64,000 nt of DNA from Eledone cirrhosa (taxonomy: Eukaryota). The notes under the pieces are model-generated. The model was not told where the DNA came from and did no database searches. It saw nothing but the letters and a program-made list of their open reading frames with translations. The stretch spans positions 197,966,001-198,030,000 of the forward strand of contig OZ024742.1 of assembly GCA_964016885.1 (NCBI GenBank). Reading direction: 5' to 3'. Made by a program: the position numbers and the translations under genes. Positions 5,110 through 64,000 of this stretch are shown here, in pieces (the first letter of the stretch is position 1; each line of letters begins with the position of its first letter).

Positions 5110-5201
5110 TTCATTACCTTTATATATACACATAGTATATATACATACACAACCTCACTTATACACATATACACATAAGTTATATTACAATAATAATAAA
5201 G

Positions 5202-5238
<37 letters not shown>

Positions 5239-5975: not shown

Positions 5976-6018
<43 letters not shown>

Positions 6019-9722: not shown

Positions 9723-10399
9723 TGTGATATGGATGATGGACAATTGAAAGAGCTCAACTAAATGTATATGGGTTTACAAAATCATACATATATATATGTA
9801 TATACATAAATATAAAATTAATACACACATACAGTACAAAAATACGAATATTTCCGTGAAAATAGGAGCAAAATTATGTAGATAAATCTACCAAGAGTTT
9901 ACGGTAGTGTCCAATCCGTATGAAGAACTCAATGTATTCCGGATATCATGGAAAGAAGAGATGTAATGAAAATCCAATTTCGGTGAAAGATAAACGGTAT
10001 ACAGAGTCAAGATAAAATAAATAATGAACAAACAATTCCTTATATTAAACAAAAAAAGTTCACTATTTTTTGTTTAATATAAGGAATTGTTTGTTCATTA
10101 TTTATTTTATCTTGACTCTGTATACCGTTTATCTTTCACCGAAATTGGATTTTCATTACATCTCTTCTTTCCATGATATCCGGAATACATTGAGTTCTTC
10201 ATACGGATTGGACACTACCGTAAACTCTTGGTAGATTTATCTACATAATTTTGCTCCTATTTTCACGGAAATATTCGTATTTTTGTACTGTATGTGTGTA
10301 TTAATTTTATATTTATGTATATACATATATATATGTATGATTTTGTAAACCCATATACATTTAGTTGAGCTCTTTCAATTGTCCATCATCCATATCACA

Positions 10400-12841: not shown

Positions 12842-14102
12842 TAACATTATTCTAGAATTTAATTTAATTTAAATGTTAGTTAACCTATAAATTTAATTTA
12901 ATTAATATTTTATTACAGATGAGAAAATATTATGTAATCATTAATTTTGAAAAACCTTTAAATATTACTAATATATATTCAGTAATTTAATTTATAGATT
13001 AATTTTAACTTATTTTAACCTTTTATTATAATTTTTTAATTTAGTTTAACCTTTTATTATAAAATTTTTTTTATTATAATTCTTTTACAGATAAAATATA
13101 ACAAAATAATATCATGTATCCTATGACGGAGAAAGAATTTTTAGTATTATTGACCTAATTAATATACATTTTGGAAATATATTTATTATTTGGTTTTAGC
13201 TTTAATCAACCTAAAACTTTAATTTTAATTTTAATTAGCTTAAAATTAGTATCCTTGTACAGACGAATTGCAGAATTTCATGTAATCATAGAATGGGAGG
13301 TGTTTTTGGATATATACCTAGTTAATATATTCTGTGCAAATTTTTTGAAAAAGATATGTATATCTATATGTATATGTATATGTGTGTATTGTATGTGTAT
13401 CTGTATGTATATTTATGTGACTATATATGTATGTACGTGTGTATATATATGTATATATATATATATATATATGTGTATGTATATGTATATGTATGTGTAT
13501 GTGTATGTATATGTATGTGTATGCGTATTAATTTTGATTTTTATTTGCATATAATTATATTATGCTATTGATGAAATACAATATCTGCTTTATGTATTGT
13601 ATACCTAATTAACATATACTAATTAACATATACTATTGAAATAAATATATAATTTTTAACTTAGTTTACATATAATTTATATGCTACTACCGATGTAATA
13701 CTTTATTTTATTTTTATTTGGGTTTCTTTTCCCTATTATTAACTTTAATTTAGTTATAATGTAATTAATAATTTACTACTGTTTGACTTCATAATTCTGC
13801 TTCAAATATTATAAACCTAACTAATTTACACCTTGGAAATCAATATGTTGACTATCTTTGGTTTAGTTGACATATGATTAATGGTATACTTTTTTATTTT
13901 GTGATGCATAGATTTCGTATTTCCTAGCATTGAAAATATGTAAGAACATACATTGAATTAAGATATGGAAAATATTATAGGTTTCTTGAAACATATATTT
14001 ACTTTGATCCCCTTCTCCAAACCCCCCCCTTTCCCCCATACTATTATCATCTGTTTTTGTAAGTGTATATGTATGAATATATGGGTAGATGGGTGTCTAT
14101 AT

Positions 14103-14206
<104 letters not shown>

Positions 14207-14943
14207 GTATTTATTTCTAGATATAAAAATACATATATGAGCATGTAAATATGAATGTAAGATTGAGTGTGTATATATGATTGTACATACATATGTATGT
14301 ATATGTATGTATATATATGTATTATATATGTACGTGTATGTGAATGTGTGGTGTATATATATGTGTAGGTATATGTATATATGTGTGCGTATGTGTATGC
14401 TTGTATATAGGAATATATATGTGTGTATATATGTATATATGTATATGCGTGTTTGCATGTATGTGTATATGGGTTCTGTATATATGTGTATGTCTCTCTA
14501 TTTATATGTTTATCTTCGTATCTATGTGATATATGTGTGTGTGTGTGCATGTATGCATATGTATGTGTTTGTGTGTGTTTATATGTGTGTGTGTATATAT
14601 ATGTATGTATTTGCGCACACTCACATACACACATATATATGTATATATATATATATATATATATGTGAGTGTGTATGCGAGTCTGTATGTGTGTGCGTGT
14701 GTATATATGTGTATATATATATATATATATATGTGTATGTATGTGTATGTGTGTGTATATAGATATATATGTATATGTTTATATATATATATATATATAT
14801 GTGTATATAGGTGTCTATGTGTGAATATATGTCTTTATTCGTATGTGTGTATTTATATATGTTTATATTTAGGTGTATGTATGTATGTGTATGTATGTAT
14901 GTATATGTATGTGTATGTATGTATATGTGTATATGTGTGTATA

Positions 14944-14980
<37 letters not shown>

Positions 14981-15072
14981 CTTTATTATTATTGTAATAT
15001 AACTTATGTGTATATGTGTATAAGTGAGGTTGTGTATGTATATATACTATGTGTATATATAAAGGTAATGAA

Positions 15073-15111
<39 letters not shown>

Positions 15112-15136
15112 CATGTCTGTATTTTATGTGTGTGTG

Positions 15137-15167
<31 letters not shown>

Positions 15168-15226
15168 ATATGTGTATGTATATATGCATATATGTGTACG
15201 TGTGTGTATGTTTATATATATACATA

Positions 15227-15265
<39 letters not shown>

Positions 15266-15375
15266 GGATGTTTGTATGTGTTTTCATGGTGGTATGAGTG
15301 TGGAATATATATGTTTATGTATAAGTATATGTATGTGTATATATATATATATGAGTCTATGTGTGTGTGTGTATA

Positions 15376-15422
<47 letters not shown>

Positions 15423-16193
15423 ATGTGTGTATGTGTTGCGCGTGTGTGTGTCCGTATTTTTATCTTTTTATATGTGTATGTGTATGTTCGTGTAAATATA
15501 TGTGTGTGTAGGACACTATAGGTATGTGTGTATCTATGTATGTGTAGATATCTCTATGTGCGCGTACATGTACGTATGTGTATGTATATCTGTATGCGTA
15601 TGTACATTATATTATGTAATATATTTTATTGTTTTTATTTTTTTATTTTTCATAATTTATAGATACATTTATATTAGGCTGTCTGGTCTGACAACCTAAT
15701 ACTGACCCCTCCCCCCCCCTCCCACCTAATTTCTGTATCTTGATCTTGAAATGTATGTATCAGTGTGTTTATGTGAGTGACTTAATTTCTATTTGCTTAT
15801 GATTTTATATCCACATATATAAATGTGAGTGGGGGGTGTGTGTGTGTTTGTGTGTTCGTGGTTATGTGTATATTTTTATATATATGCGCACATGTATGTG
15901 TGATTATACTGATATGTGTGAGTATGAAGAAAAAATATATTTATATGCTTGACTACATAAGTATCATTGCGTATCTTATCAGCGCATTAAGCTTACAGAG
16001 ATATTAACCTTGAAATTTTTTATTTGCATCCATCTTTTTAGTATGCACATACATATTATACACACATTATTGTAAAATGTGTGTGGGGTTTTACATGTAT
16101 ATACACACACCAAACTGCTTTTTAACCCTTTGTGTTTTCATTGGTCAATTTTGAACTGATATTTTGAATTGTTGTTATTATCAATAAATATAC

Positions 16194-16348
16194 TTCATTA
16201 TTTCTGAAGACGGCGTATATATGAGTTAGGTATGTATATTTAATCTTGATAATTTGTATAATTTTGTATAATTTTGTACATAGATCTGTTAAATATGCAT
16301 ACCAATTATAGCACATATATGCCCTAGAAACGATCGTTAAATAGTGAA
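16194..16348 (+). ncRNA. Type I hammerhead ribozyme with 116-nt stem II; predicted cleavage after GUU at 16338
   Basis: Stem I TTCATTATTT/AAATAGTGAA (10 bp); CTGAAGA 16204-16210; GAAA 16327-16330; palindromic stem III AACGATCGTT. Stem II includes GGCGTATAT/ATATATGCC and GGTATGTATATTTAA/TTAAATATGCATACC. Confidence 0.78.
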
Positions 16349-16529
16349 CTTTTTTTGTTTAATATAAGGAATTGTTTGTTCATTATTTATTTTATCTTGA
16401 CTCTGTATACCGTTTATCTTTCACCGAAATTGGATTTTCATTACATCTCTTCTTTCCATGATATCCGGAATACATTGAGTTCTTCATACGGATTGGACAC
16501 TACCGTAAACTCTTGGTAGATTTATCTAC

Positions 16530-19529: not shown

Positions 19530-19557
19530 TTCTGCACAAATGTTGCTCCATTATTTT

Positions 19558-19737
19558 GGCAGTATTGGTAGAGGGTCGGATGCCATGCTTTCCAGCATAG
19601 TTATGTCCCTTTACGATCTGAGTTCAAATCCTGCCGAGGTTGACTTTGCCTTTCATCCTTACGGGGTAGATAAAATAAAGTACCAGTAATGCACTGGGTA
19701 ATTGCTGGCCTTGTGCCTAAAGTAGAAACAATTATTA
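19558..19737 (+). mobile_element. tRNA-derived SINE with Deu/Nin-like core
   Basis: A-box-like TGGTAGAG, B-box GAGTTCAAATCC, core GCCTTTCATCCTTACGGGG.....AAAATAAAGTACCAG. More than 12 copies in the window. Confidence 0.75.
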
Positions 19738-19923
19738 GATCTAATGTTGCAACGATACAGTTAAATGTTGTCTGTGTATTTTAAAAAAGATTTGCTTATA
19801 ATCTTTTCAAATTTCATTACGCCAATGATTCAAGCTCAAATTGACATTATCTAAAAAATTGTACAAACAGCGGTGGATTAGCAGTAGTGAACAGATAAAT
19901 CAGTCAATTTATTAAGATTGACT

Positions 19924-20575
19924 TGGCATCAATCAGCAAGACCTTCATTAGCTGCTCTCCAGCCATCTATTTAAAGCTGTATACATCTATGGTACGAATA
20001 CACTTGGAGTTCGCGTCATCAGTCTGGAACCCCTATCTTGCTCAGAACATTGACCTCCTGGAAACTGTTCAGAGACATGCAACCAAGCGCATACCCTCCA
20101 TCAGACACCTACCATACCCTGAATATTTTGCTTCCCTCTGGCAATGGACTTGGTAAACACCCACAAAGTTATTAACCATCCGACCAACAACAACCCCTAA
20201 CACCTTTTTGATCTCCATGTGTCTAACACGTGGACATGCCTACAAAGTCAGAAAACAACACAGCTCCCATGACTTTAGGAAATATTTCTTCATGCTCAGA
20301 GTTGCTGAAGGATGGAACAAACTTCCTGCATCAGTTGTTAGCTGATGACACACTGCATCCTTTAAAACCATCATACATTCCGAAATACACCAAAACTACA
20401 CCTGATGTCCCCCTTCCATACACATGCACATATGTGTATATCATGACTCATGCACTGTTCTTTTTTCATGACGTTTTTATATTACCCTATGTATTATATA
20501 TGCACTTTTGATGAGTTGTAGTGCACCTCAGCATTGTACACAATATTTTCATTATTATTATCATTATTATTATTA
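19924..20575 (+). mobile_element. CR1/L2-type LINE 3' fragment with (ATT)n tail
   Basis: LYTSMVRIHLEFASSVWNPY...LETVQRHATK; F..RV...WNKLP; ATT repeat tail. Confidence 0.8.
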
Positions 20576-21043
20576 CACTCATTGATCCATTTTGCACTAA
20601 CTCTGCATCAAGCACCCTCACCTAAATATTAACCAATCAAGGATCCAATACAGCTATCTGTTGGATGAGTATTGTATAGTGCCAAAAACGAAACCAATCA
20701 GTTTAGCAGAAAATTTCCAGACAAGAAACACGCATATTTTGCTATCCTCAAACACGTTTACACATGGCATGAAATATAACTAATCCGAGATGGCTAGGTT
20801 TCATCTTCTAACTGGATATACGAAATCCATTATGTCTTGACAACAACATGAGGTAACATTATGTTATTCACAGACACACTTTGTACACTGTTCCATATCA
20901 GAATGTATTTCCTTCGTCACATTCACAAACAGTATTGAAAATATGTTCTTCGGCAAATAAAAATGTTTTGTTCATAATATTTCAACTAGCGATTGCTCTA
21001 CTCCACGCACGACCACCATAAATTAATGACCAGCTCAACACAA

Positions 21044-21215
21044 GTATTGGTAGAGCGTCAGACACCATGCTTTGCAGTATTGTTATGGTCCTTTGCATTC
21101 TAAGTTCAAATCCTGCCGAGGTTAACTTCGACTTTCATACTTACTAATTCGATAAAATAAAGTACCAGTAATGGACTGCCGTAATGGATTTGTGCCGAAA
21201 AATAGAAACACTATT
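21044..21215 (+). mobile_element. SINE copy (duplicated at 38404-38575)
   Basis: Same B-box and core. Confidence 0.65.
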
Positions 21216-21767
21216 AATGTGCAATAAGAGCAAAATATAACGACATTGCTCAATTATTTTATCTAATGTTGTAATAACACAAGGAAATGTTGTTTGTGTA
21301 TTTTTTTTTATATTTGCTCATAGGCTTTTACAATTTCGCTCAGCCAACAACTATTAAAAAGTGAGTTGCTTAAGATAACAATTTAATCACAAATTGTTGC
21401 TATCTTTTAATACACTCCAACAAGTCATCAAATTATGTACAATAAAAACAAATCTTATTAATTTGCTCAGGGAATATAAAGAAAATGTATATACACTGAT
21501 AATTGCAATTGTATGTAAATATTTTGTTTTTGTATTGTTTATTTTATGTTTTCTATTATGTATAATATATTGATTTAATATTGATTGTTTTTTGTAGTTG
21601 TTTATATTAAAAGTCTGAAAATATTTTTATACATCTTACACTAATATTTATAAGATAATTTATAATAACAATTACATAATCTAATTACATTACAACGATA
21701 ATTTATTATTAATATATATCCTCTTTAACTAGAGTTATTACAAGCGTTGCCTTAAAAAAATATTAAA

Positions 21768-22723
21768 CTAGACATGAAAAATGCGCAAGCTCAAAAGTGC
21801 CACAGAATGTTATAATAAACCTTCAAAAGTGTGGGACTAGAGTTGTTGCTAAAAAATATTGTAATCATTATATATCGTACATTCTGTGGCATCCTTTATA
21901 AAAATAGCTTAAACCAACGAAGCCTTTATTTTTACGCTATTTCACTTAGTTAATTCTTAGAGTGTAACATATAAAAATAAATACATCTATGTTTAATGTA
22001 ATAACAGCTATAAATAATTACGTAATATTATTATCATATACTCATAGTAACAAAATAATTGTGTTGAAAATTAATATGATGCTTATATGAACGATCAAAT
22101 CTATAATGATAATTTCTTAAATATACTAATAGTAAAATAATTTAGTTATCTATTGTTACATTTTCATAGAACTATAATATTAACAATCGTATTGCATTAT
22201 CAAATTTTTATCACTACAAACTTTCATATTGGAATTACCTTAAGCCACTTATTATTACTTCGCTTTCGTACTTTTACAGCTGTAGATATTGCGCTGTATC
22301 TTATATCTAATATCAATATCTCATGGTAATTTGCATGCAGTGTAAAATAGGTTTATTAATAACTTTAATATGAAATGTATTATACAGGGCTGCGGAGTCG
22401 GCCAAAAATTGACTGGCTCCAACTCAGGATCCGATATTCCCTTATTTCCTAAATTTCAGCTCCGCAGCTCTGTTATTATATTAATTAATTTATTTTATAG
22501 TTGTAAATCATATTTTTATATGTTACACTCTAAGAATTAACTAAGTGAAATAGCGTAAAAATAAAGGCTTCGTTGGTTTAAGCTATTTTTATAAAGGATG
22601 CCACAGTATGTACGATATATAATGATTACAATATTTTTTAGCAACAACTCTAGTCCCACACTTTTGAAGGTTTATTATAACATTCTGTGGCACTTTTGAG
22701 CTTGCGCATTTTTCATGTCTAGT
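21768..22723. mobile_element. Foldback/MITE-like element with ~210-bp inverted arms ending ACTAG..CTAGT (second copy 39128-40082)
   Basis: 21768-21978 is the reverse complement of ~22513-22723. Confidence 0.7.
22385..22472. mobile_element. 88-bp hAT-type MITE nested in the foldback
   Basis: TIR CAGGGCTGCGGAG/CTCCGCAGCTCTG; 8-bp TSD gtattata/ttattata (7/8 match). Confidence 0.65.
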
Positions 22724-22972
22724 ATATATATATAAATGTAAGTATGCATGTATACGTACATACATATATGTATACAGACGTACAGTAGCATGCACATATA
22801 TATATATACATATATACATACATATGCATACAGGTACACATACATATATGCACGTATCAGTTTAGCGGCGCTAACGTCGCTTTGTTCGTTTGTAAACAAA
22901 CTGAACAGCCTGAATTTATGCCATACGGTGTTAAGGCAACCACGTCACCTTTTTGTTCAACACTGACACAGG

Positions 22973-23017
22973 AACGATGTACTAGTTTCAAGCTTGTTAG
23001 CTATCATCAGCACCGTT
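22973..23017 (-). ncRNA. Minimal type I hammerhead ribozyme (family A)
   Basis: Reverse complement of 23382-23426. Confidence 0.88.
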
Positions 23018-23297
23018 TACCCATCTGCCAGATAGTTGAACGTTCGAAAGTATATACTTTCCTTATGAAAATTAACGGCTGAGCAGCCTAATTTGCATAT
23101 TGAGTGAGTTAAATCGGTCAGGCATACCGAAAACGATAAATTGAAACAAAATGAAAACGAAATTTCATTTCTCACTCTTAGTATGGCACTTACTTAAATG
23201 TAAGTATGCATGTATACGTACATACATATATGTATACAGACGTTTCATTTTGTTTCAATTTATCGTTTTCGGTATGCCTGACCGATTTAACTCACTC

Positions 23298-23374
23298 AAT
23301 ATGCAAATTAGGCTGCTCAGCCGTTAATTTTCATAAGGAAAGTATATACTTTCGAACGTTCAACTATCTGGCAG
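23298..23374 (+). promoter_or_regulatory. Putative snRNA-type promoter cassette (octamer, PSE-like, TATA-like) upstream of family A HHR
   Basis: ATGCAAAT 23301-23308, TATATA 23343-23348, TGGCAG 26 nt later. A homologous block with the same spacing is at 46840-46917. Confidence 0.45.
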
Positions 23375-23381
23375 ATGGGTA

Positions 23382-23426
23382 AACGGTGCTGATGATAGCT
23401 AACAAGCTTGAAACTAGTACATCGTT
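23382..23426 (+). ncRNA. Minimal type I hammerhead ribozyme (family A); cleavage after GUA 23419
   Basis: AACGGTG-CTGATGA-T-AGCT-aaca-AGCT-T-GAAA-CTAG-TA-CATCGTT; 7-bp stem I, palindromic stem III ACTAGT. Confidence 0.9.
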
Positions 23427-23968
23427 CCTGTGTCAGTGTTGAACAAAAAGGTGACGTGGTTGCCTTAACACCGTATGGCATAAATTCAGGCTGTTCAGTT
23501 TGTTTACAAACGAACAAAGCGACGTTAGCGCCGCTAAACTGATACGTGCATATATGTATGTGTACCTGTATGCATATGTATGTATATATGTATATATATA
23601 TATATATGTGCATGCTACTGTACGTCTGTATACATATATGTATGTACGTATACATGCATACTTACATTTAAGTAAGTGCCATACTAAGAGTGAGAAATGA
23701 AATTTCGTTTTCATTTTGTTTCAATTTATATATATATATGTATATATATATGTATATATATATATATGTATACATATATATGTATTTATATGTGTATATA
23801 TATATGTATATAAATATGTATATATATATATGTATATATATATGTATATATATATGTATGTATATGTATATATATGTGTATATATATGTATATGTATATA
23901 TATGTATATGTATATATATATGTATATGTATATATATTTATGTATATATATGTGTATATATATATATG

Positions 23969-24015
<47 letters not shown>

Positions 24016-24246
24016 GTATATATATATATATGTATATTTATATATGTATATATATATGTATATATATGTATATATATATATGTATATATATATGTGTATA
24101 TATGTATGTATTAGAATTGGAGCTCTGAAATAGCAATATATATATGGATGTATATATAATGTATTTTGCAATACACTTTATGCTTAATTAAAAGCATTTT
24201 GAAGACCGTAAGCTATTGTTTTAAAGTAGTGACAAATTCACTCACT

Positions 24247-24343
24247 TTGATCTCAGCAAACAGGGGAGATAAGCCGAAATTTCATGTTTCGCTTTTGTTG
24301 AAGCTTATCAAGGCCAACTACCCCGCCTGTCTACTGAGATCAA
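24247..24343 (-). ncRNA. Hammerhead variant (U3-A8 core UUGAUAA) on long rod; cleavage triplet mutated in this copy
   Basis: Minus strand reads GGGGTAGTTGGCC-TTGATAA-GCTT-caacaa-AAGC-GAAA-CATG-AAATTTCGGC. Confidence 0.55.
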
Positions 24344-24702
24344 TGATGTTATATTCTTATAGAAATCTAGTAAATAATCAGGATCTGATTATGCAGAGCG
24401 GTTGTTGGTCAGGCAGAAATTAAAAATTAGAATTGGAGCTCTGAAATAGCAATATATATATGGATGTATATATAATGTATTTTGCAATACACTTTATGCT
24501 TAATTAAAAGCATTTTGAAGCCGTAAGCTATTGTTTTAAAGTAGTGACAAATTCACTCACTTTGATCTCAGCAAACAGGGGAGATAAGCCGACATGACAT
24601 TTCAGAGCTCCAATTCTAATTTTTAATTTCTGCCTGACCAACAACCGCTCTGCATAATCAGCTCCTGATTATTTACTAGATTTCTATAAGAATATAACAT
24701 CA

Positions 24703-24799
24703 TTGATCTCAGTAGACAGGCGGGGTAGTTGGTCTTGATAGGCTTCAACAAAAGCGAAACATGTCATGTCGGCTTATCTCCCCTGTTTGCTGAGATCAA
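24703..24799 (+). ncRNA. Hammerhead variant (family B) with ~30-bp extended stem I; GUC at 24763-24765
   Basis: TTGATAG-GCTT-caacaa-AAGC-GAAA-CATG-TC; palindromic stem III ACATGT; rod TTGATCTCAGTAGACAGG/CCTGTTTGCTGAGATCAA. Confidence 0.62.
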
Positions 24800-24935
24800 A
24801 GTGAGTGAATTTGTCACTACTTTAAAACAATAGCTTACGGTCTTCAAAATGCTTTTAATTAAGCATAAAGTGTATTGCAAAATACATTATATATACATCC
24901 ATATATATGTATATATATATATATGTATATATATG

Positions 24936-25256: not shown

Positions 25257-25864
25257 GTCAGGTCACCAGTTGGTGCTACTGGTAACATGTATCCCAGTAC
25301 AACCTGTCCCATGGTCGGGTCATTGGCGACTAAACTGGCAACCTCACCAAGGTTTCTTGGTGAGGAGGGTGACTTTGGACATCCTGCAGGACTAAAAACG
25401 AAACCTGTCAAAGGGCAAAGGAGCTCTTAAGAGTCAATGACCATTCAAAATCACCGGGAGAGATGACCCCTTAGCCTTTGTCAAGGCAGAATTCTAGGAG
25501 AAGGAAAACTCTGATATAACACCTGCAACCCTGATGGTATCCAATGATGTTGACTTGTTCTTCTTTTTGGTAAATATCATCTTGGTTAAGAGAGTGGGAC
25601 TGGCTTTGTGCAGTGCCTTTGCTCACTATAAAAGCTTCACGGCACAGGCATTGCTTTATATCTGGAGATCTCTCTGCACTTGTCGTCACATGGTACCATG
25701 GGCCCAGCACTGTGTCAATAATTGTCACAAGTGTAGTGTTTGTACCAGAGTTTACAAGTCGCTGGCTGGACTAAAAAGTCTCACTTGTTCAGCGCATCGG
25801 TAGGGGTTCTCCTACATGGATATAAAGTAGTGGCCGTACTCGAAAACGAGTTGGCAGCCACCAT
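25257..25864 (+). mobile_element. ~605-bp non-autonomous bipartite RTE-derived element, copy 1
   Basis: Four copies with shared ends. The middle resembles the RTE 5' UTR at 53722-53945. The 3' part encodes a CxxC..S..GL.SH...H remnant and ends GGCAGCCACC-ATGT. Confidence 0.7.
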
Positions 25865-26321: not shown

Positions 26322-26486
26322 GAGATAGATAAAATACACGGGTGTGTATGATTGTGTATAGAAGATTATATTAAGAAGAGGAATTCCAACTTTGTCTGAT
26401 TTACTCGTTTTATTTACAATCCTTTAAAATTTATAGTGGTATTATAATGAAATAGTATGATAGAATATTAAATGTTAAGTGTTAAT

Positions 26487-26525
26487 TGAACAAGTACTTT
26501 CATGCTTTCGCAATCTTCAGGTTCA
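26487..26525 (-). ncRNA. Minimal type I hammerhead ribozyme (39 nt)
   Basis: TGAAC-CTGAAGA-T-TGC-gaaa-GCA-T-GAAA-GTAC-TT-GTTCA; palindromic stem III AAGTACTT. Confidence 0.88.
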
Positions 26526-26910
26526 TAATGTGTGGTGACAGTCAAGTTTGCAATTTTCAACTGTAATGAGATGGCTAAATTTTGTACCTTATATACAGTG
26601 AAAAGTGGCTCCAGAATGCTATATCTTGCAAACTGTATTTCGACCAATCGGTGTGTAGTTTCACTGAATTACTAAAGCTGATTGGTTTAGGCATCGCGGT
26701 TGGTTGAAAATGTCTAATGACCACTAATTGATCCTATCCAAAGCATCAATTGTTTTGCTATTTTTAGAAATGATGAAAATAGCATTTTCTAGTAATCATC
26801 ACAATCAACATCACTTTTATTATTATTATTATTGTTGTTGTTGTTGTTAGTGGTGGTAGTCGACATGGTTGTAGGCGTAGTCATAGTAGGAGTAATACCC
26901 CTAAGCATAA

Positions 26911-29200
26911 TTATTGTTCATTTAGCTTGGGTTTGAATTTATCAATAAAATTCTTTTCTTTGATTTTTCTCTTGATTTCACTTGGGCTGTGTAATTTGTA
27001 GAATGGGAATATTATAAATATTCCCTGTCCACATGTTGCTAGATGGTTTCTTAGGGGTATCTGATGGACATTTAGGTCTCTGATTTGCTGACGGTGTACC
27101 CGTGCACGTTCCAATAGTGCATTTCCAGTTTGACCGACATATAGTTCTTCACAATTCGGCCATTTAATGCAGTAAATTAGATTTCTGCTTTTGCAGTTCA
27201 TATTTGCATTTGGGAATGTTTTTCCAGTTTTTATTTTCATATATTGACCGGCGTGTATGGATTGATATGTGCCGCATCGACTATCATTGCATTTAGATAC
27301 AGTGAATGATTGGTCTTTGTTGTTAAGGTCAAACTTTGCCTCTGTTAGTAATTGCTTCAAATTTTTCGGCTGTCTTTTACTAAGAGTCAAAGATCGATCT
27401 GTGATTAAGCCTTTTAATTCATTACTTTGAACAATGATCGGTAGGTTTGCTTTGGCAGTGTTGAAGATATTCTGGTGACATGGGTTGTGTGTCATTATAA
27501 ATGGGTTGACCAGTTCTTGGTTTCTTCTTCCTTGGGTTGTCCTAAGTTGTTGTATAGGTATTTTTATAGCCCGCTGTATGCCATTTTCTATAAGTAGAGA
27601 TGGGTATTTTTGTTTGAGCAAAAATTCTCTTAGTTCTGTTAGGCGTTTGTACCTGGTATTCGTATCTTCTACAATGGTACAAATTCTTCTAGCTAGACAG
27701 TATGGGATGTTGCGTTTTGTATGAGGTGGATGGCACGACTTAAAATTCAGATATTGATGGGTATCTGTGTGTTTATAATATATATCCGTGGTAATGGTGG
27801 TGTCGTTTTTGATTATCATTATATCTAGGAATGGTAATTTGGTCCTACTCATCTCTTTTGTGAATTGGAGAGATGGGTGTAGGTTATTCAGGAGGATATT
27901 GAACTCATCCATAGTATCTAGAGATTCTGTCCAGATGATGAAACAGTCGTCAAGGTATCTCTTCCAAGATTTTTCAATGTACTTTCTAAAGTCAGTACTA
28001 TATTTTTCCTCTATTTTTTGGTAGAGTTGTTGTTCTAAGTATCCCATTACAGACTTCGCGTAAACGGGAGCAAACTTCGTTCCCATCGCTGTGCCTCTAA
28101 TTTGGATGTAATTCTTTCCATTGAAGAAGAAAGTGTTGTTTTCTAGAATAAGTTTAACTGCGTCTAATATAATTGGCGCTGTGAATCTGATGGGAATCAC
28201 TTATCTATGTTTTTCCACCCAGTATTTAACCGCCTTTATTCCTAAATCATGTGTAATGTTGGTGTAAAGGCTTACCACATCAAAACTAAGTAGAAGTGAA
28301 TTCGTTTCCGTGGTTTTGGGAAGATGGGACAGGAAGTCGATATCATCCCGGATGAAACTGGGTATGTGAATACATAGTGGTTTCAAAATAATGTCAACAA
28401 AATTGCTTAGACGGTGGGTGGGGCATGTTGGACCAGCTATAATAGGTCTAAGTTTTAAGTCTTTTGGGTGTAGTAATTTAATGTACTCACTGTTTTGTTC
28501 TCTTACTGCCAGTTGTATTTCTTTTGACTTATGAACTTTCGGTAGGCCATACAGGTTGCAGGTTTTGGCTCAAAATTGGTGATGTAGTCTCTTTCCTTAT
28601 CAGTAAGTGAGTTGTGGTATTTTGAAGCCAGGTTGTTGATCTTCTTCATGATGTTGTGGTCTATATTTGACGGTATTTCATGATAGAATGTGTCTTTCAG
28701 TTGTTCTTCAACCAAATCCTTGTAGTATTCAGCATCCATTATAACAACTGCACCCCCTTTATCTGCTTGTTTAATTATTATTGTTTTATCATTTTGTATA
28801 CGTTTAAGTGCAGACATTTCTGATTTGTTAATGTTTGGCCTAACATTAGTATTACGTCTAAGAGGAAATTTAGACAGGATGTCAATGTATTGGTCGAGAT
28901 AGATATTTCTTCCTTTTGGCGGAGTGAAATTTGATTTATTTTTTACTAGTGATTCATCACTCTCATTACTTTTATCAGCGAAGAATTCTACAAGACGTAA
29001 TTTTCGACAGAATTCTTGGGTATCCTCCTTCAGTTCTTGATGGTTGACTGCTGGAGTCGGTGTGAATTTCAGTCCTTTTGACAGAATTTGCATTTCATCA
29101 TTGTCAAGATCTCTTTTGGATAAATTAATTATTTTAGGATCTACGTGTACAGTTGTTTTGGGTATGTTTCCTTCTGGAGTTTTTCTTTTTCCGGTTTTTG
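26911..29200 (-). pseudogene. PLE RT/GIY-YIG, frameshifted
   Basis: LSKGLKFTPTP, ADKGG, FDVVSLYTNI, GTAMGT, RYLDD, SCHP, C...RC linker, LIY..LYVGQTG, E..I....P.LN. Confidence 0.9.
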
Positions 29201-29258
29201 TTGTCCTGACGTTAAAAAATGGATTTTTCTCTGTTCAGGATTTATATTCCTGTTGGTG

Positions 29259-30542
29259 TTCTAGTTGTCGATAACCCTATTCACGCCACTAAGACGAAGC
29301 TAGTGTGGTGTGTGTATTTCTAGTAGAAATAACACGTGTTACTGGCCAGTCGCTGATTTGAACTTGAAGTGTAAACACGGATCGCTGGAACTTCTTCCTT
29401 GTTGAAAATCCAAGTATCCACTTCCGTAGTTTACCATCCGATTAATTGGTGAAATATATTTCTTTAATGGAATATATACAGGGAAGATTAATTATATTAT
29501 AAGGTATCTATTTTTGAAGTTCTGGTCAACTTTATGTAGTTACCTACCTAGCTATGTTGTAAAAATTATCTCCAGTGATTTCATTTCATTTCATTTCATT
29601 TCATTTCATTTGAGTTTGAGTCCATGCTCAGGCCAAGTCGAAGACTCCACCCTCAGAGTCTGGTGTGGTTGCCAGGTTGGATTCTCTATTTAATTTTGAC
29701 ATGTGTAGGAGCGAGTTTGAGTCAGTTTGTGCTCGTTGTGTATATCCTGGGAGATGGGGTTCATCTCTAATGGTGCTTAAGTATCTATCCAGCTGCAATT
29801 TGAATGATTCCACACTGCATCCTGATAGATTTCTGACATGTACCGGAATGGAGTTGAATAGTTGTGCCCCTCGAACCAACAGACTTGACTCTCGCAGGGT
29901 TTTTGCTGCCTGGCCAGCCTTTTTGTTGATTGGTGGTAGCGGGCAGCGTCTTCCGTGGCGCAGTGAGTGGTAGGTTTTGATACCAAAGTTTGGCACTTTT
30001 TGCTCTATCATTTTCCAAATGTATATAATTCGGTATCGCTCAAATCTTCTTTCTATTGAGTACATCTTCAAGGTTTTGAGTCTTTGCCAATAGTCCAGGT
30101 CCCTCGTTTCTGAGAAGTATGAGGTAAAATGATTATTCATGTTTATTTATATGTTAATCAATTTCTAGTTATTATAAAATGCTCGGACCTACTCGTTAGA
30201 ATCTTAGAGCTTATTTTGCGGCTGATATGGCGCATGTCTTTCTGGCATGACACCCATAATTTTGATTTGGATTAAATTCATTTGATTTATCTTAATTTTG
30301 GATATAGATATATAAATACTTAATTGTAGAGCTAACTCTGTTGAAAGGACTCGACTGCTGTTTCTAGTTGTCGATAACCCTATTCACGCCACTGTGTGTA
30401 TTTCTAGTAGAAATAGCACGTGTTACTGGCCAGTCGCTGATTTGAACTTGAAGTGTAAACACGGATCGCTGGAACTTCTTCCTTGTTGAAAATCCAAGTA
30501 TCCACTTCCGTGGTTTACCATCCGATTAATTGGTGAAATATA
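29259..30542 (+). repeat. ~200-bp direct repeats (29259-29458, 30362-30542) bounding a ~550-nt unit interrupted by a LINE fragment
   Basis: Repeat read directly with a ~20-nt indel; the right end joins (TA)n. Confidence 0.8.
29578..30130 (-). mobile_element. CR1/L2-type LINE 3' fragment with (TGAAA)n tail
   Basis: LDYWQRLKTLKMYSIERRFERY..LFNSIP..FK..LD; TGAAA x6 tail; possible TGATT TSD. Confidence 0.8.
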
Positions 30543-30844: not shown

Positions 30845-32251
30845 ATTGTTATACTTTGGGAGGGTCATGTTGCCAATAAGAAACACACGCACCAGTTGCT
30901 TTCACTTCAATTTATTATATATTTATAAATTTATAAATTTACAAATCTACAAATTTATAAATTTCTGGTTGGTTGGTTGGTTCCACAACCAGATAGTTGT
31001 TTATATATAGTCATAGTCCTTTCGTCACACACTCTGTGACCTCTTCAGTGACTGGGGATTCCTTTCTTTGTTTCTGTGCCTTTCCTTTCTTCTGTCCTAC
31101 GCCATTTTGTTTCTGTGTGTGTGTTGTGTGCTGAGTTTGCGCATGCGCCACATCCAGGTGTCTGTGTGTGTTTGTGTTCATTTATCTATTTGTTTATTTA
31201 TTTACATGTTGTTGGTTGGTTGTTTATTCTATGTGTGTGTGTGTTTTCATTTTGTCCTTAATTGTAAGTTGTGATGTTGCTGTTCCACTCATATTTTCTA
31301 TTTAATTTTGGTTGTAATTCTTTTATGTTTACTGCCTCTGTAATTTGTCTAAACATTGCATCTTTTCTGTGTGTAGATTCTATTTTTATTTCTATGTTCT
31401 CTAATTTATCCTTGTGTTCTATCTTAGCATGTTGGTAGAGTACATATGATTCTTTATTATCTTGAAGGTCTCGCCAGTGTTCATTTATCCGTTCCCCTAT
31501 ACTACGAGCTGTCTCACCTATGTACACTATATTTTTGTTTCTACATTGTCCTTCAGTACATCTTATGCTATACACTACATTTCTAGTTTTACAGTTAATA
31601 TGCGGGCTTATTTTACAGGTTATACATTTCTTATCTATACATGAGGGTCTTTGGAACGGGTATGTCTTGCTAATAAGTGTTTTTACGGAGGTACCTGGTC
31701 TTTCTACTATCTTAATATTGAGTTTATGTTTATTTATGGCCCTTCTAAATTTGTAGGCTAGTTCGCCTCTAGGGGTTGTATCGATGAACATTACACTCTG
31801 GTATTTATTGCTATCATACCATGAGTTTATTCTATTGGCCTTGTTCCTAGTTCTTTCTATTCTATTCCAAAATTTGCTCCTATACAAGGGGCAGGTCCCA
31901 TTTATGTCATTATTTACCATTTTTTCCCATTTGGTTCTGGCTCCTCTATACACTCTGATTCTATCTCTCTGATTGTAGCCAGAGAACTGCATACGGTGGA
32001 TGAAGTGTTGTATGTGTCTCTCTAGTTCTTCGGGGTTGCACATGCGGGACACATTTCTCATCACCCGTACCAAATCCGCAATCAGTATGTTGATTTTGGT
32101 ATGGTCCGAAATGGCCGAGTTTCGGTGGATCAGATGTTTGGAAGTCATGGGTTTGGCATAATTGGCAACATGACCCTCCCAAAGTATAACAATATCGGTT
32201 TCAACACACGATTTCAGATAAAGAATCTTGCTAAACAAATTCAGAAACGAA
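30845..32251 (-). mobile_element. PLE-A-related fragment (thumb + GIY-YIG) with short inverted 5' end plus tail
   Basis: 31258-32160 encodes [27 protein letters not shown], similar to 1026-2453. 30845-30877 is inverted at 32161-32193, with a tail to 32251. Confidence 0.88.
31009..31053 (-). ncRNA. Minimal type I hammerhead ribozyme
   Basis: AGTCA-CTGAAGA-G-GTCACA-gagtg-TGTGAC-GAAA-G-GA-CTA-TGACT. Confidence 0.78.
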
Positions 32252-32845: not shown

Positions 32846-33453
32846 GTCAGGTCACCAGTTGGTGCTACTGGTAACATGTATCCCAGTACAACCTGTCTCA
32901 TGGTCGGGTCGTTGGCGTCTAAACTGGCAACCCCACCAAGGTTTCTTGGTGAGGAGGGTGACTTTGGACATCCTGCAGGACTAAAAACAAAACCTGTCAA
33001 AGGGCAAGGGAGCTCTTAAGACTCAATAGCCATCCAAAATCACCGGGAGAGATGACTCCTTAGCCTTTGTCAAGGCAGAATTCTAGGAGAAGGAAAACTC
33101 TGATATAACACCTGCAACCCTGATGGTATCCAATGATGTTGACTTGTTCTTCTTTTTGGTAAATATCATCTTGGTTAAGAGAGTGGGACTGGCTTTGTGC
33201 AGTGCCTTTGCTCACTATAAAAGCTTCACAGCACAGGCATTGCTTTATATCTGGAGATCTCTCTGCACTTGTCATCACATGGTACCATGGGCCCTGCACT
33301 ATGTGTCAATAATGGTCACAAGTGTAGTGTTCGTACCAGAGTTTTTAAGTCGCTGGCTGGACTAAAAAGTCACATTCGTTCAGCGCATCGGTAGGGGTTC
33401 TCCTACATGGATATAAAGTAGTGGCCGTACTCGAAAACGAGTTGGCAGCCACC

Positions 33454-33455
<2 letters not shown>
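32846..33455 (+). mobile_element. Bipartite RTE-derived element, copy 2
   Basis: High similarity to 25257-25864. Confidence 0.7.
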
Positions 33456-33484
<29 letters not shown>

Positions 33485-33856
33485 GATGTATATATATATA
33501 TATGTATATGTATATATAGATGTATATATATATGTATATGTATATATAGATGTATATATATATGTATATGTATATATAGATGTATATATATATGTATATG
33601 TATATATAGATGTATATATATATATGTATATATAGATGTATATATATATATATATGTATATGTATATATAGATGTATATATATATATGTATATGTATATA
33701 TATATGTATATGTATATATAGATGTATATATATATATATGTAGATGTATATATATATATATATATATATGTATATGTATATATAGATGTATATGTATATA
33801 TAGATGTATATATATAGATGTATATATATATGTATATATATGTATATGTATATATA

Positions 33857-33919
<63 letters not shown>

Positions 33920-34060
33920 ATATGTATATATAGATATATATATAGATGTGTATATATATGTATATATAGATATATATGTATATGTATATATAGATATATA
34001 GATATATGTATATATGTATATATATATGTATATATGTATATATGTATATATGTATATATG

Positions 34061-34115
<55 letters not shown>

Positions 34116-34116
34116 G

Positions 34117-34179
<63 letters not shown>

Positions 34180-34189
34180 GTATGTATGT

Positions 34190-34619
34190 ATGTATACGTA
34201 CATACATATATGTATACAGACGTACAGTAGCATGCATATATATATATATATATATATACACATACATATATGTACGTATCAGTTTAGCGGACGTTTATTA
34301 TAACGCCCGCTTTGTCCGTTTGTAAACAAACTGACAGCCTGAATTTATACCGTACGGTGTTAAGGCAACCACGTCACCTTTTTATTCAACACTGACACAG
34401 GAACGATGTACTAGTTTCAAGCTTCTTTGCTATCATCAGCACCGTATACCCTTCTGCCAGATGGTTGAACGTTCGAAAGTATATACTTTCCTTATGAAAA
34501 TTAACGGCTGAGCAGCCTAATTTGCATATCGAGTGAGTTCAGTCGGCCAGGCGCACCGAAAAAGATAAGTTGTAATAAAATGAAAACGAAATTTCATTTC
34601 TCACTCTTAGTACGGCACT
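34190..34619 (-). mobile_element. Diverged family A monomer with HHR at 34402-34445
   Basis: Aligns with 22748-23190. Core CTGATGA-T-AGC-aaagaa-GCT-T-GAAA-CTAG-TA is intact. Confidence 0.82.
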
Positions 34620-35410
34620 GTGGAGCGTGGAGAACAATAGCACGCAAAGACAAAACCGCGTAAATGGTATAGCAGAAGTCGTAGACTAAAATTAATCTCC
34701 GCTACAGAGTTAAGAACAAAGTAAATAAATACAATACAGAAGTAATAGAAACAAATAAATACATACATGCAAACAGATACGTACATACACAAGCATACGC
34801 AAAACCTTACCATAGGTATACAAAACCACGCACATATAAATGTGTGTGTGTGTGTATGCTTGTGTACAAATAAATAAATAAATAATTATATCAACATATA
34901 TAAGTAAATAAATACGTATATAACAAGCGCACACGCATACCTACATATAAATACACGAATGTTCGGAGACTAAAACAAGAAGTACACATATACACACACC
35001 CACCATACGTACGAACCTGCATACTCACGCAGACGCAAAACTCCCGTATACACATAGCCAAACCCTAAATACCAGACTATGTAAAAATTATACGCCATAA
35101 CAGTCAAATATACGTACGAGAAGGTATACATACCTTCACAAAACATACGGGTAATCTATACTTACCTATGCAAATAACTAAAGGAATAAACAAAACATAT
35201 ACTTAGCTCCCACATCAAGACGTAAAATATCCACGTATAGATGGTGCTATCCGTTAGGGTATAACGTGGGGCTGTAATACAGGAAAGTTTTGTGCAATTT
35301 ATGTTTACAAGCCGAAATTGCCTCAGATTTTTTGTTTAAGATTTGGTCTGTGGCGTAGAGTATTTCCAGGGCCTCAGCGGCGCAGAGATCACATGGTCTT
35401 TTATTTCCGA
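34620..35410 (-). mobile_element. Second Naiad-type family: ORF C-terminus and 3' UTR
   Basis: 35247-35410 encodes CDLCAAEALEI..ILNKKSEAISACKHKLHKTFLYY, matching the C-terminus of the 813-aa ORF. Confidence 0.8.
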
Positions 35411-35749
35411 AAACGGAGAAAAAGAAGAAATGTATGTAAAGAAAAACAGAGAGAAATAGAGAGAGATAGGGGAGAGAGAGATAGTGAGGAGGTGAAAAAA
35501 GAGATGCAGCTGAAGGCAACAGATGAATAATAAAAATTCATCATACAAATTGAGAGATTTAGGAGGGAGGGAGTGCTGTAATTATTTAGTTATAGTGTTA
35601 AGGACAGTTATGGAGGAGATGGAGAGAAAAAATGAAGAGAAAACAGAGAGAGAGAAAGATAGAGGTGGGGGGAAAAAAAGAAAGAGGTAGACCAAGTTGC
35701 TCAATATTCATGGTACGTCAAAATTATTTATAAAACTGTTTATATATTG

Positions 35750-35815
35750 TATTTTATCTGAAGAAGGCATGCCATATTTTTAATATGGTATCCCCGAAAT
35801 ATGTATAATGAAATA
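35750..35815 (+). ncRNA. Type I hammerhead ribozyme in the inverted arm (35411-35945) of the second Naiad locus
   Basis: TATTTTAT-CTGAAGA-A-GG-C-ATGCCATATT-ttt-AATATGGTAT-CC-CC-GAAA-TATGTA-TA-ATGAAATA; 8-bp stem I. Confidence 0.7.
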
Positions 35816-35942
35816 AATATGGTTTTATAAATATAGTTTCCATTTGTTTAATATCGTATATCTACTCCAAAACTTGTCGAGTGCTTTATTTCAGTTATAA
35901 AATATTTACTTGTTGTAACCCAACAATTTTAAATAAAACTTT

Positions 35943-35988
<46 letters not shown>

Positions 35989-37380: not shown

Positions 37381-40092
37381 AGTCTGGAACCCCTATCTTG
37401 CTCAGAACATTGACCTCCTGGAAACTGTTCAGAGACATGCAACCAAGCGCATACCCTCCATCAGACACCTACCATACCCTGAATATTTTGCTTCCCTCTG
37501 GCAATGGACTTGGTAAACACCCACAAAGTTATTAACCATCCGACCAACAACAACCCCGAACACCTTTTTGATCTCCATGTGTCTAACACGTGGACATGCC
37601 TACAAAGTCAGAAAACAACACAGCTCCCATGACTTTAGGAAATATTTCTTCATGCTCAGAGTTGCTGAAGGATGGAACAAACTTCCTGCATCAGTTGTTA
37701 GCTGATGACACACTGCATCCTTTAAAACCATCATACATTCCGAAATACACCAAAACTACACCTGATGTCCCCCTTCCATACACATGCACATATGTGTATA
37801 TCATGACTCATGCACTGTTCTTTTTTCCTGACGTTTTTATATTACCCTATGTATTATATATGCACTTTTGATGAGTTGTAGTGCACCTCAGCATTGTACA
37901 CAATATTTTCATTATTATTATCATTATTATTATTACACTCATTGATCCATTTTGCACTAACTCTGCATCAAGCACCCTCACCTAAATATTAACCAATCAA
38001 GGATCCAATACAGCTATCTGTTGGATGAGTATTGTATAGTGCCAAAAACGAAACCAATCAGTTTAGCAGAAAGTTTCCAGACAAGAAACACGCATATTTT
38101 GCTATCCTCAAACACGTTTACACATGGCATGAAATATAACTAATCCGAGATGGCTAGGTTTCATCTTCTAACTGGACATACGAAATCCATTATGTCTTGA
38201 CAACAACATGAGGTAACATTATGTTATTCACAGACACACTTTGTACACTGTTCCATATCAGAATGTATTTCCTTCGTCACATTCACAAACAGTATTGAAA
38301 ATATGTTCTTCGGCAAATAAAAATGTTTTGTTCATAATATTTCAACTAGCGATTGCTCTACTCCACGCACGACCACCATAAATTAATGACCAGCTCAACA
38401 CAAGTATTGGTAGAGCGTCAGACACCATGCTTTGCAGTATTGTTATGGTCCTTTGCATTCTAAGTTCAAATCCTGCCGAGGTTAACTTCGACTTTCATAC
38501 TTACTAATTCGATAAAATAAAGTACCAGTAATGGACTGCCGTAATGGATTTGTGCCGAAAAATAGAAACACTATTAATGTGCAATAAGAGCAAAATATAA
38601 CGACATTGCTCAATTATTTTATCTAATGTTGTAATAACACAAGGAAATGTTGTTTGTGTATTTTTTTTTATATTTGCTCATAGGCTTTTACAATTTCGCT
38701 CAGCCAACAACTATTAAAAAGTGAGTTGCTTAAGATAACAATTTAATCACAAATTGTTGCTATCTTTTAATACACTCCAACAAGTCATCAAATTATGTAC
38801 AATAAAAACAAATCTTATTAATTTGCTCAGGGAATATAAAGAAAATGTATATACACTGATAATTGCAATTGTATGTAAATATTTTGTTTTTGTATTGTTT
38901 ATTTTATGTTTTCTATTATGTATAATATATTGATTTAATATTGATTGTTTTTTGTAGTTGTTTATATTAAAAGTCTGAAAATATTTTTATACATCTTACA
39001 CTAATATTTATAAGATAATTTATAATAACAATTACATAATCTAATTACATTACAACGATAATTTATTATTAATATATATCCTCTTTAACTAGAGTTATTA
39101 CAAGCGTTGCCTTAAAAAAATATTAAACTAGACATGAAAAATGCGCAGGCTCAAAAGTGCCACAGAATGTTATAATAAACCTTCAAAAGTGTGGGACTAG
39201 AGTTGTTGCTAAAAATATTGTAATCATTATATATCGTACATTCTGTGGCATCCTTTATAAAAATAGCTTAAACCAACGAAGCCTTTATTTTTACGCTATT
39301 TCACTTAGTTAATTCTTAGAGTGTAACATATAAAAATAAATACATCTATGTTTAATGTAATAACAGCTATAAATAATTACGTAATATTATTATCATATAC
39401 TCATAGTAACAAAATAATTGTGTTGAAAATTAATATGATGCTTATATGAACGATCAAATCTATAATGATAATTTCTTAAATATACTAATAGTAAAATAAT
39501 TTAGTTATCTATTGTTACATTTTCATAGCACTATAATATTAACAATCGTATTGCATTATCAAATTTTTATCACTACAAACTTTCATATTGGAATTACCTT
39601 AAGCCACTTATTATTACTTCGCTTTCGTACTTTTACAGCTGTAGATATTGCGCTGTATCTTATATCTAATATCAATATCTCATGGTAATTTGCATGCAGT
39701 GTAAAATAGGTTTATTAATAACTTTAATATGAAATGTATTATACAGGGCTGCGGAGTCGGCCAAAAATTGACTGGCTCCAACTCAGGATCCGATACTCCA
39801 TTATTTCCTAAATTTCAGCTCCGCAGCTCTGTTATTATATTAATTAATTTATTTTATAGTTGTAAATCATATTTTTATATGTTACACTCTAAGAATTAAC
39901 TAAGTGAAATAGCGTAAAAATAAAGGCTTCGTTGGTTTAAGCTATTTTTATAAAGGATGCCACAGAATGTACGATATATAATGATTACAATATTTTTTAG
40001 CAACAACTCTAGTCCCACACTTTTGAAGGTTTATTATAACATTCTGTGGCACTTTTGAGCTTGCGCATTTTTCATGTCTAGTATATATATAT
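37381..40092 (+). repeat. 2.7-kb local duplication, copy 2
   Basis: Matches 20021-22733; starts abruptly, fusing RTE to CR1 sequence. Confidence 0.95.
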
Positions 40093-53600: not shown

Positions 53601-53997
53601 CTTTTATATTGTTCTGGAACATCATTGAATTGAAAAAAAAAAAAAAAAAAAAAAGTAATAATAATAGTAACAATAATAATAATAATAATAATAGTACACT
53701 ATCAATAATTATTAATGCACTCGTGCAATGCCTGTGCGTGACGAATATTTTTAAAGTGAGGAAAGACTGTGCACTGAGCCAATCCCACTCTCTGAGCGAC
53801 AGTAGCTATAACCCGAAAAGAAGAAAAGATCAACATCATCGGTAACTACTGAGCTGCAGGTTTTATGTCGAAGTTAACCCAGTTTTCTGAGATGCCTTCT
53901 CCTAGAAGAATGCCCTGACATGGGCTAGGGGTTCTTCACTCCCAGTGGTTTAACTGCGCGATCGGGCATCCAGCCCGATTATTTCTATGTCTCCGCG
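50620..53997 (-). mobile_element. Near full-length RTE (BovB-like) LINE, frameshifted, 3' end missing
   Basis: APE motifs WNVRTL, ALSETR, GDFNARVG, DYV, TDHRLV. RT motifs YRGISLL, FVDLTKAFDTV, GVKQG, LLYADD, RLRWSGH. Confidence 0.9.
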
Positions 53998-54107: not shown

Positions 54108-54715
54108 ATGGTGGCTGCCAACTCGTTTTCAAGTACGGCCACTACTTTATATCCATGTAGGAGAACCCCTACCAATGCGCTGAACGAGTGTCACTTTTTA
54201 GTCCAGCCAGCAACTTGAAAACTCTGGTACAAACACTACACTTGTGACAATTATTGACACAGTGCTGGGCCCATGGTACCATGTGACGACAAGTGCAGAG
54301 AGATCTGCAGATATAAAGCAATGCCTGTGCCGTGAAGCTTTTATAGTGAGCAAAGGCACTGCACAAAGCCAGTCCCACTCTCTTAACCAAGTTGATATTT
54401 ACCAAAAAGAAGAACAAGTCAACATCATTGGATACCATCAGGGTTGCAGGTGTTATATCAGAGTTTTCCTTCTCCTAGAATTCTGCCTTGACAAAGGCTA
54501 AGGGGTCATCTCTCCCGGTGATTTTGGATGGCCATTGACTCTTAAGAGCTCCTTTGCCCTTTGACAGGTTTCGTTTTTAGTCCTGCAGGATGTCCAAAGT
54601 CACCCTCCTCACCAAGAAACCTTAGTGGGGTTGCCAGTTTAGTCGCCAACGACCCGACCATGAGACAGGTTGTACTGGGATACATGTTACCAGTAGCACC
54701 AACTGGTGACCTGAC
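54108..54715 (-). mobile_element. Bipartite RTE-derived element, copy 3, with (TATG)n tail
   Basis: Reverse complement of 25257-25864. Confidence 0.7.
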
Positions 54716-63888: not shown

Positions 63889-64000
63889 GTCAGGTCACCA
63901 GTTGGTGCTACTGGTAACATGTATCCCAGTACAACCTGTTTCATGGTCGGGTCGTTGGCGACTAAACTGGCAACCCCACCAAGTTTTCTTGGTGAGGAGG
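63889..64000 (+). mobile_element. Bipartite RTE-derived element, copy 4 (runs off the window)
   Basis: Same 5' end GTCAGGTCACCAGTTGGTGC. Confidence 0.7.

Follow-up and report, generated by a model that had tools for sequence, protein, structure and literature searches.

Positions 34190-35945 of the window (the whole 64,000-nucleotide stretch of DNA that was analyzed) hold a composite insertion, in which a retrozyme-like repeat, family A, is joined directly to the 3' UTR of a Hydra-clade member of the Penelope-like elements (PLEs). In our reading, to which we give a probability of about 0.55, priming by the reverse transcriptase of a PLE took place in (TA)n, and the enzyme copied a circle of A once before it jumped to Hydra RNA.

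The minus-strand arm of the insertion (34190-35410) is a single series of ORF end, 627-nt UTR, family A repeat, and (TA)n. It begins with a 5'-truncated ORF end (35247-35410) that encodes the final 53 aa of a Hydra-type C-terminal GIY-YIG region and a stop. The TG/TA-rich 3' UTR that follows (34620-35246) belongs to a second Hydra-clade PLE family, designated Hydra-2, and is high-copy in public runs and single in the window. The A repeat (34190-34619) starts at 34619 and covers 0.97-0.99 turn of a 462-nt unit; on the circle it runs from position 7 to around position 2 and takes in a TA-rich hairpin tail. Base 34619 matches both partners, so the junction at 34619/34620 has a 1-nt microhomology. 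The tail of A leads into about 740 bp of (TA)n-like DNA, the presumed target, at the 3' end of the arm (33445-34189, in a masked block extending to 34284). At 35410/35411, the minus arm meets head to head the plus-strand arm C (35411-35945), which is 5'-truncated and runs through a purine-rich stretch and a second hammerhead to a PLE-type 3' end and (TA)n (35946-35985). Both outer ends of the composite are (TA)n, although (TA)n siting is not Hydra-specific in the window. The sequence-only reading had noted almost one A monomer followed by (TA)n and no microsatellite at the junction. The alignment bears this out, giving 0.991 turn, or 0.97 without the last ambiguous TA-like bases, and the UTR runs straight into A at 34619 with zero microsatellite between them.

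The clade of the ORF fragment was examined by comparison with the intact ORF of another Hydra-clade element of the window, Hydra-1 (10349-12841, plus strand), which carries RWR, DKT, YRDD, CxCX5C, and, at the C-terminus, GIY-YIG. The fragment (35408-35250, minus strand) is translated as GNKRPCDLCAAEALEILYATDQILNKKSEAISACKHKLHKTFLYYSPTLYPNG (53 aa), with the stop at 35249-35247. Its motif, CDLC..E...LNKKSEAISACKH, corresponds to the CxxC..E..LN..CxH end of the endonuclease and is followed by the stop. The fragment was identical to the Hydra-1 protein at 23 of 47 positions (E 4e-15); this closest relative has RWR at 54, DKT at 132, and CNCRNKTNC at 690, the counterparts of the Hydra-clade RWK, DKT, and CxCX5C linker, in the region missing from the fragment. 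Among 122 proteins (118 homologues of the intact window ORF and four window PLE proteins), 56 were matched at E<1e-3, all of them at most 40 aa from their C-terminus, and none of the three non-Hydra PLE proteins of the window was matched. The RT comes first and the GIY-YIG last in the best match. As compared by eye, the pattern also agrees with the Hydra rows of Fig. S7 in the available material of PMC8557442. In X5 (record 22), the Hydra-2 ORF carries on past 35409. Neither the 53-aa fragment nor the intact Hydra ORF matched a Pfam family. When the fragment was used to look for longer proteins, three candidates were obtained, none of them significant, which is weak evidence, and exact-motif scans gave zero matches in metagenome, prokaryote genome, and viral contigs. 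The protein matches and the motif pattern indicate that the fragment is the end of a Hydra-clade PLE.

The ORF end and UTR had originally been ascribed to a Naiad. Both features are present as described, but the Naiad identity was rejected. As described in the available text of PMC8557442, Naiads have the GIY-YIG endonuclease N-terminal to the RT and no canonical hammerheads. Here, the fragment ends in a C-terminal endonuclease motif and a stop, and a hammerhead core with stems I-III is found at the end of each arm. The RT, in which Naiads carry CxC, DKA, and IFD motifs, is absent from this truncated copy. The element was placed in Hydra.

Several other PLE insertions were observed in the window. 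Three more lie in (TA)n at 102-3035, 26324-29450, and 30855-32241, with hammerhead-like cores at 2732, 26520, and 31048; two have CX2-5CxxC linkers and one is Neptune-like by motifs. The clade labels used for the window (Neptune-type, Nematis- or Neptune-like) were assigned from motifs and should be taken as presumptive. The Hydra-1 insertion (3797-16521) is a 6.6-kb palindrome with an intact 830-codon ORF, a 3.4-kb microsatellite-rich UTR, and a hammerhead with its core at 16204 and a stem II of about 120 nt. Its inverted arm has its 5' end at 10068, which corresponds to the base directly following the predicted cut at 16338/16339; this suggests a ribozyme-cleaved template for Hydra-1. Zero reads ended at the cut site in the available part of the Poseidon PLE study (PMC11167929).

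Family A is a tandem non-coding unit, and its tandem junction was found in all four runs examined, from two organisms. Elsewhere in the window, A was found only at a pure A locus (22733-23729) with periods of 462 and 466 nt, where 290 of 310 aligned core bases were identical to the 34190-34619 copy. This locus has two arms, 1.11 and 1.05 turns long, which meet head to head and both end in TTTA/(TA)n, and it shows the PLE hallmarks (head-to-head arms and (TA)n at both ends), as do four other two-arm insertions examined. The type I hammerhead of A lies at 34398-34450 on the minus strand, with a CUGAUGA core at 34439, a 3-bp stem II, a palindromic minimal stem III, and a 6-bp proximal stem I, which is extended by further helices in the whole-unit fold. 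The core and stems are present in 3/3 arms. The predicted cut is after 34409, at circle position 217, in the middle of the copy. In Rfam the hammerhead matched HH9 at only 17.6 bits (E 0.46), far below the gathering score. The 58-nt motif alone folded no better than shuffles (z -0.15 and -0.69); the unit without its tail folded better than shuffles (z -5.1 and -3.3). The unit also contains a TA-like hairpin of about 130 nt.

The three A arms measure 0.991, 1.106, and 1.045 turns, starting at circle positions 7, 416, and 41 and ending at 2, 2, and 61. They end at TTTA-like sites adjoining (TA)n, and none of the three arms starts or ends at the predicted cut at 217. These arms represent two insertion events, on which the one-turn lengths rest. 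A second ribozyme repeat (24110-24890) has arms of 1.54 and about 0.9-0.98 turns, so that overall four of five arms are near one turn. A circular A RNA copied once would explain the permuted one-turn arms simply, with an uncleaved tandem transcript as the alternative template. Family A is probably a non-LTR retrozyme-like repeat with putative self-cleavage and a putative circular RNA. The positions flanking its ribozyme core match the window Neptune-type ribozyme at 25/58 and the Hydra-1 ribozyme at 13/58; because they are nearer to the former, A may be derived from a PLE clade other than Hydra, or may mainly use one.

The second retrozyme-like family at 24110-24890 has a period of 316, two inverted arms, and TA flanks. 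Its hammerhead core is the variant UUGAUAA/UUGAUAG, not CUGAUGA, and it matched Rfam HH9 at 25.3 bits (E 0.0007), below the gathering score. For the whole window, only microsatellite-driven miRNA matches were found among the Rfam matches listed (150 of 270).

We compared the junction with four of the 20 public runs listed: X1, which may be the window's own sample, X4, X5, which is from another organism, and X18. All parts of the composite except 35410-35689 were very abundant in these runs. At 34619, loose ends were found on both sides, with A and the UTR both departing from the window sequence there. On the A side, the sequence continued into A's own tail in 65 X1 contigs, a further 78 X1 contigs with a variant at 34616, one contig each of X4 and X5, and 15,805 X18 reads; A is therefore tandem or circular. 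On the UTR side, 77 X1 contigs continued into a different, T-rich, non-A sequence (agreement 0.69). Since both partners leave the window sequence at the same base, these results indicate that the junction is a chimera of two pre-existing families. No listed contig spans 34190-35945 or bridges 34619/34620, and the junction is known from the window assembly alone (n=1). When the other continuation of the UTR was compared with A over its first 30 nt, 345 of 1000 shuffles and 174 of 1000 random window segments scored equally well, and homology between the two was rejected.

The last 71 nt or so of the UTR (34619-34690) were 2-10x deeper than the UTR upstream in X1, X4, and X5. In X18, reads joined 34689 back to 34619 (212 reads) and 34693 back to 34619 (70 reads; 282 in total), and the loose UTR-side sequence seems to stop where the 71-nt module starts. 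These observations suggest that the segment is one unit of a tandem module of about 98 nt in other Hydra-2 copies, and that the UTR's other continuation is probably the spacer of about 27 nt. Given such a module, the UTR loose end would show this spacer and not the true 3' end of Hydra-2. The sequence after the last module unit in typical Hydra-2 copies could be A. At most roughly 20-45% of the X18 plus-direction reads on the module (a hand estimate) could run into A, which is compatible with recurrence or none. X18 resembles a double-digest library, with reads that begin at the GCATGC site at 35768/35771 and end at AATT; we take the enzymes to be SphI and MluCI. For this reason, X18 depth was not used as copy number; the joints that it shows on the opposite strand to 34589-34619 were discarded as ligation products, as were the loose ends of low agreement at 34589/34590.

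The opposite arm had been described as carrying a different hammerhead, which our comparison supports. Arm C has a CUGAAGA core at 35758, a long stem II, a predicted cut after 35807, and (TA)n 138 nt beyond, and it showed nothing above low-complexity matches to either the UTR or A. Other copies of C end in (TA)n at 35861 (6,385 X18 reads), and in X5 (record 23) the plus-arm family extends upstream of 35413. The AT-rich ribozyme of C was nearest to that of Hydra-1, agreeing at 28/58 non-core positions, compared with 26 in a known related pair and 12-20 in unrelated pairs; local matches between the two reached only E 0.04. In 5/5 two-arm insertions examined elsewhere in the window, both arms are of the same family. 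By this pattern, C would be the 3' end of Hydra-2 itself, and two RNAs would have been sufficient. The proximal part of C was 10-40x shallower than the Hydra-2 ORF end (4-9 thousand versus 330-480 thousand in X1; 5 versus 47 in X5), so that C is probably not the 3' end that Hydra-2 normally has, and three RNAs may be required. We put the odds that C is Hydra-2's own 3' end at even. The ribozyme region of C (35746-35940) was 30-300x deeper than the Hydra-2 UTR in X4 and only about 1-15x deeper in X1.

In the mechanism that we favor, a PLE ribonucleoprotein would have produced the composite in a (TA)n tract by a single retrotransposition. The reverse transcriptase would prime, on one of the strands, on A RNA at a UUUA-like site and copy the RNA, either a circle or a tandem transcript, for one turn back to the start point. 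It would then jump over the 1-nt microhomology into the interior of the Hydra-2 mRNA, at a site 627 nt beyond the stop, and copy 790 nt into the ORF, where 5' truncation would occur. On the other strand, a second priming would copy the PLE-type 3' end of arm C, and the two cDNA ends would be joined head to head. We infer the RNA-level join, the circular template, and the use of Hydra-2's own enzyme, the last by cis-preference only. The event may have taken place here, or a single time in an ancestral copy that was amplified afterwards.

It had been proposed from the sequence that a Naiad RT began on retrozyme RNA and switched to its own mRNA. The switch and its direction are retained, in keeping with the shared base 34619 and the one-turn A, but not the Naiad. 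The further claim that the mobilising enzyme had been identified goes too far: one chimera supports a helper but does not identify it, the element belongs to Hydra, and three PLE types of the window, namely Neptune-type, Nematis- or Neptune-like, and Hydra, sit in (TA)n. The junction is a plausible but single candidate trace of the enzyme copying such repeats.

Two DNA-level events could also have produced the composite, and we regard this as the strongest of the alternatives, though an unlikely one. A would have been inserted by any PLE or LINE enzyme in or beside an older Hydra-2, and target-site deletion, or later end-joining over 1 nt, would have removed the 3' end of that Hydra-2. The native sequence at the breakpoint, CACA/TATG, is an alternating purine-pyrimidine patch resembling the preferred target, all these families crowd in (TA)n within the window, and the 1-nt microhomology suits end-joining as much as template jumping. 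If C is the true Hydra-2 3' end, the original insertion would moreover have been an ordinary inverted PLE copy. However, this account requires an extra deletion of the whole remainder of the UTR and its ribozyme, and a remnant of the UTR's other continuation, which a clean insertion into the UTR should have left behind, was sought elsewhere in the window with 0 matches at up to 3 mismatches. A later random deletion would also not be expected to spare exactly one turn of A. The divergence of the two parts from high-depth X5 contigs was 5/134 and 6/260 (Fisher p 0.52), so there was no sign of different ages for the Hydra-2 and A parts, in a comparison of low power. The variant table, with 40 of 361 rows listed, was rejected for dating.

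Alternatively, A could be the native 3' end of this Hydra family, a pseudo-LTR with a ribozyme, with tandem A as its non-autonomous derivative and the minus arm as an ordinary 5'-truncated copy. Hydra elements have canonical ribozymes near their 3' end and insert in (TA)n, and animal retrozymes have been reported to derive from PLE termini in the available part of bioRxiv 10.64898/2026.07.22.740005. The loose ends before 34619 may represent the internal spacer only. The CUGAUGAU...UGAAACU signature was seen by eye in the Hydra ribozymes of File S2, but it also occurs in the window Neptune-type ribozyme; as a clade marker, the CUGANGAU...UGAAA signature was rejected, being present in both. In X1 and X5, window-type A alleles at 34540-34554 were about as deep as the UTR, whereas in X4 they were nearly absent (0-16 of about 180) although Hydra-2 contigs were present (depth 128-265). 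A native end would further make it a coincidence that tandem A and the UTR spacer depart at one base, and the inverted arm is not A, against one family in both arms of the 5/5 other insertions. We consider this explanation improbable. The related proposal of the sequence-only reading, that A arose from this UTR, was weakened in the same way: it leaves the shared breakpoint a coincidence, shuffles equalled the similarity in 345 of 1000 cases, and the ribozyme flanks agree less with Hydra-1 (13/58) than with the Neptune-type ribozyme (25/58).

An assembly artefact fusing two abundant repeats is very improbable: none of the listed contigs bridges the junction or spans the stretch, but private variants on both sides (among the 40 of 361 rows listed) suggest an aged genomic copy, the 6.6-kb palindrome was resolved elsewhere in the same window, and an overlap of 1 nt is too short for an assembler to join sequences.

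Other repeats were also observed near these elements. A 590-bp element occurs at 25264-25853, 32853-33444, 54119-54708, and 63896-64000, with copies 96-97% identical and (TA)n flanks. It is in part 70% similar to the DNA before an RTE-like ORF (53725-53951) and may be derived from a LINE as a non-autonomous element, with (TA)n as its target too. A 2.7-kb direct duplication (20021-22733 and 37381-40092, 99.6% identity) ends exactly at the pure A locus and contains an element of about 970 bp with 220-bp terminal inverted repeats (21760-22731). A SINE-like interspersed repeat of about 190 bp was found at 19548-19743 and about ten other places, with copies 73-98% identical.

The enzyme that mobilises animal retrozymes and the question of a circular template are still argued from co-occurrence and sequence likeness. 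The locus gives two countable genomic signatures, permuted retrozyme arms of about one turn and chimeras with a named PLE clade, and the families are abundant enough in this genome for both to be counted. The Hydra protein and the A circle also form a concrete substrate for the type of in vitro assay built for the Poseidon PLE (PMC11167929). If the chimera has amplified, it would represent a PLE swapping its ribozyme end for that of a satellite. More speculatively, and in our view doubtfully, the junction could mark the origin of a Hydra subfamily that was later amplified and whose 3' end and ribozyme were newly acquired from a retrozyme circle. In that case, priming on such circles in (TA)n would be routine for PLE enzymes, which would go round once and then jump or invert, so that ribozyme modules move between satellite circles and PLEs of different clades, as with a Neptune-like ribozyme on Hydra.

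PLEs have been proposed as helpers or parents of animal retrozymes (PMC7229834; bioRxiv 10.64898/2026.07.22.740005, available parts). In Xenopus, 24 of 57 retrozyme families match TEs, and 21 of the 22 TEs are PLEs, as given in the available text of the latter. Like the metazoan non-LTR retrozymes described in these sources, A has a tandem unit that is non-coding, contains a single type I hammerhead, is low in GC and strongly self-paired, and co-occurs with PLEs. Its 462-nt unit is above the 170-400 nt given in PMC7229834 and within the 51-972 bp of the preprint. A is unlike the retrozymes in the available parts of these two sources, where no such chimera is described, in its TA-like hairpin of about 130 nt, in its permuted and inverted arms of about one turn, and in its fusion to a PLE body. 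The window A arms are 1.0-1.1 units long; the public contigs are too short to reveal dimers. Four short motifs of family A were not found in the available supplement of PMC8557442, and the available text of a paper on Octopus vulgaris repeats (PMC13282606) had no mention of ribozymes and no match to four motifs.

The composite resembles the Hydra-clade PLEs in the available material of PMC8557442 in its C-terminal endonuclease with CxxC and CxH around E and N, its (TA)n target, a ribozyme near the 3' end, and an inverted 5'-truncated arm. It differs from them in that its two arms come from dissimilar sequences, and UTRs here are 627 nt or more (3.4 kb in Hydra-1), compared with whole elements under 3 kb. 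Naiad PLEs in the same source likewise target (TA)n and have tandem and inverted structures, but they have an N-terminal endonuclease, a C-terminal RT, and no canonical ribozyme in the part available.

A PLE protein was reported to cut and extend both strands, to be a predicted dimer, and to initiate internally on its RNA (PMC11167929, available part). The U6/L1, U6/SINE, twin-primed, and triple LINE chimeras in the available text of PMC4476161 likewise arise when, within one insertion, the template is switched or two templates are primed, and they have been interpreted as marks left by the mobilising machinery. The mechanism proposed here agrees with this two-strand extension and internal initiation and with the LINE switch chimeras. 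The LINE chimeras start on the element's 3' end and then take up the passenger, whereas here the passenger would come first, the enzyme would be that of a PLE, and the passenger is a probable circle. Neither a retrozyme-PLE chimera nor retrozyme arms of one turn were found described in the literature searched, which was mostly non-subscription, with preprint supplements outside its scope. Within that literature, the proposed link between PLEs and retrozymes and the chimeric retrotranscripts of LINEs are already known, and the retrozyme-PLE fusion and the one-turn arms are new here.
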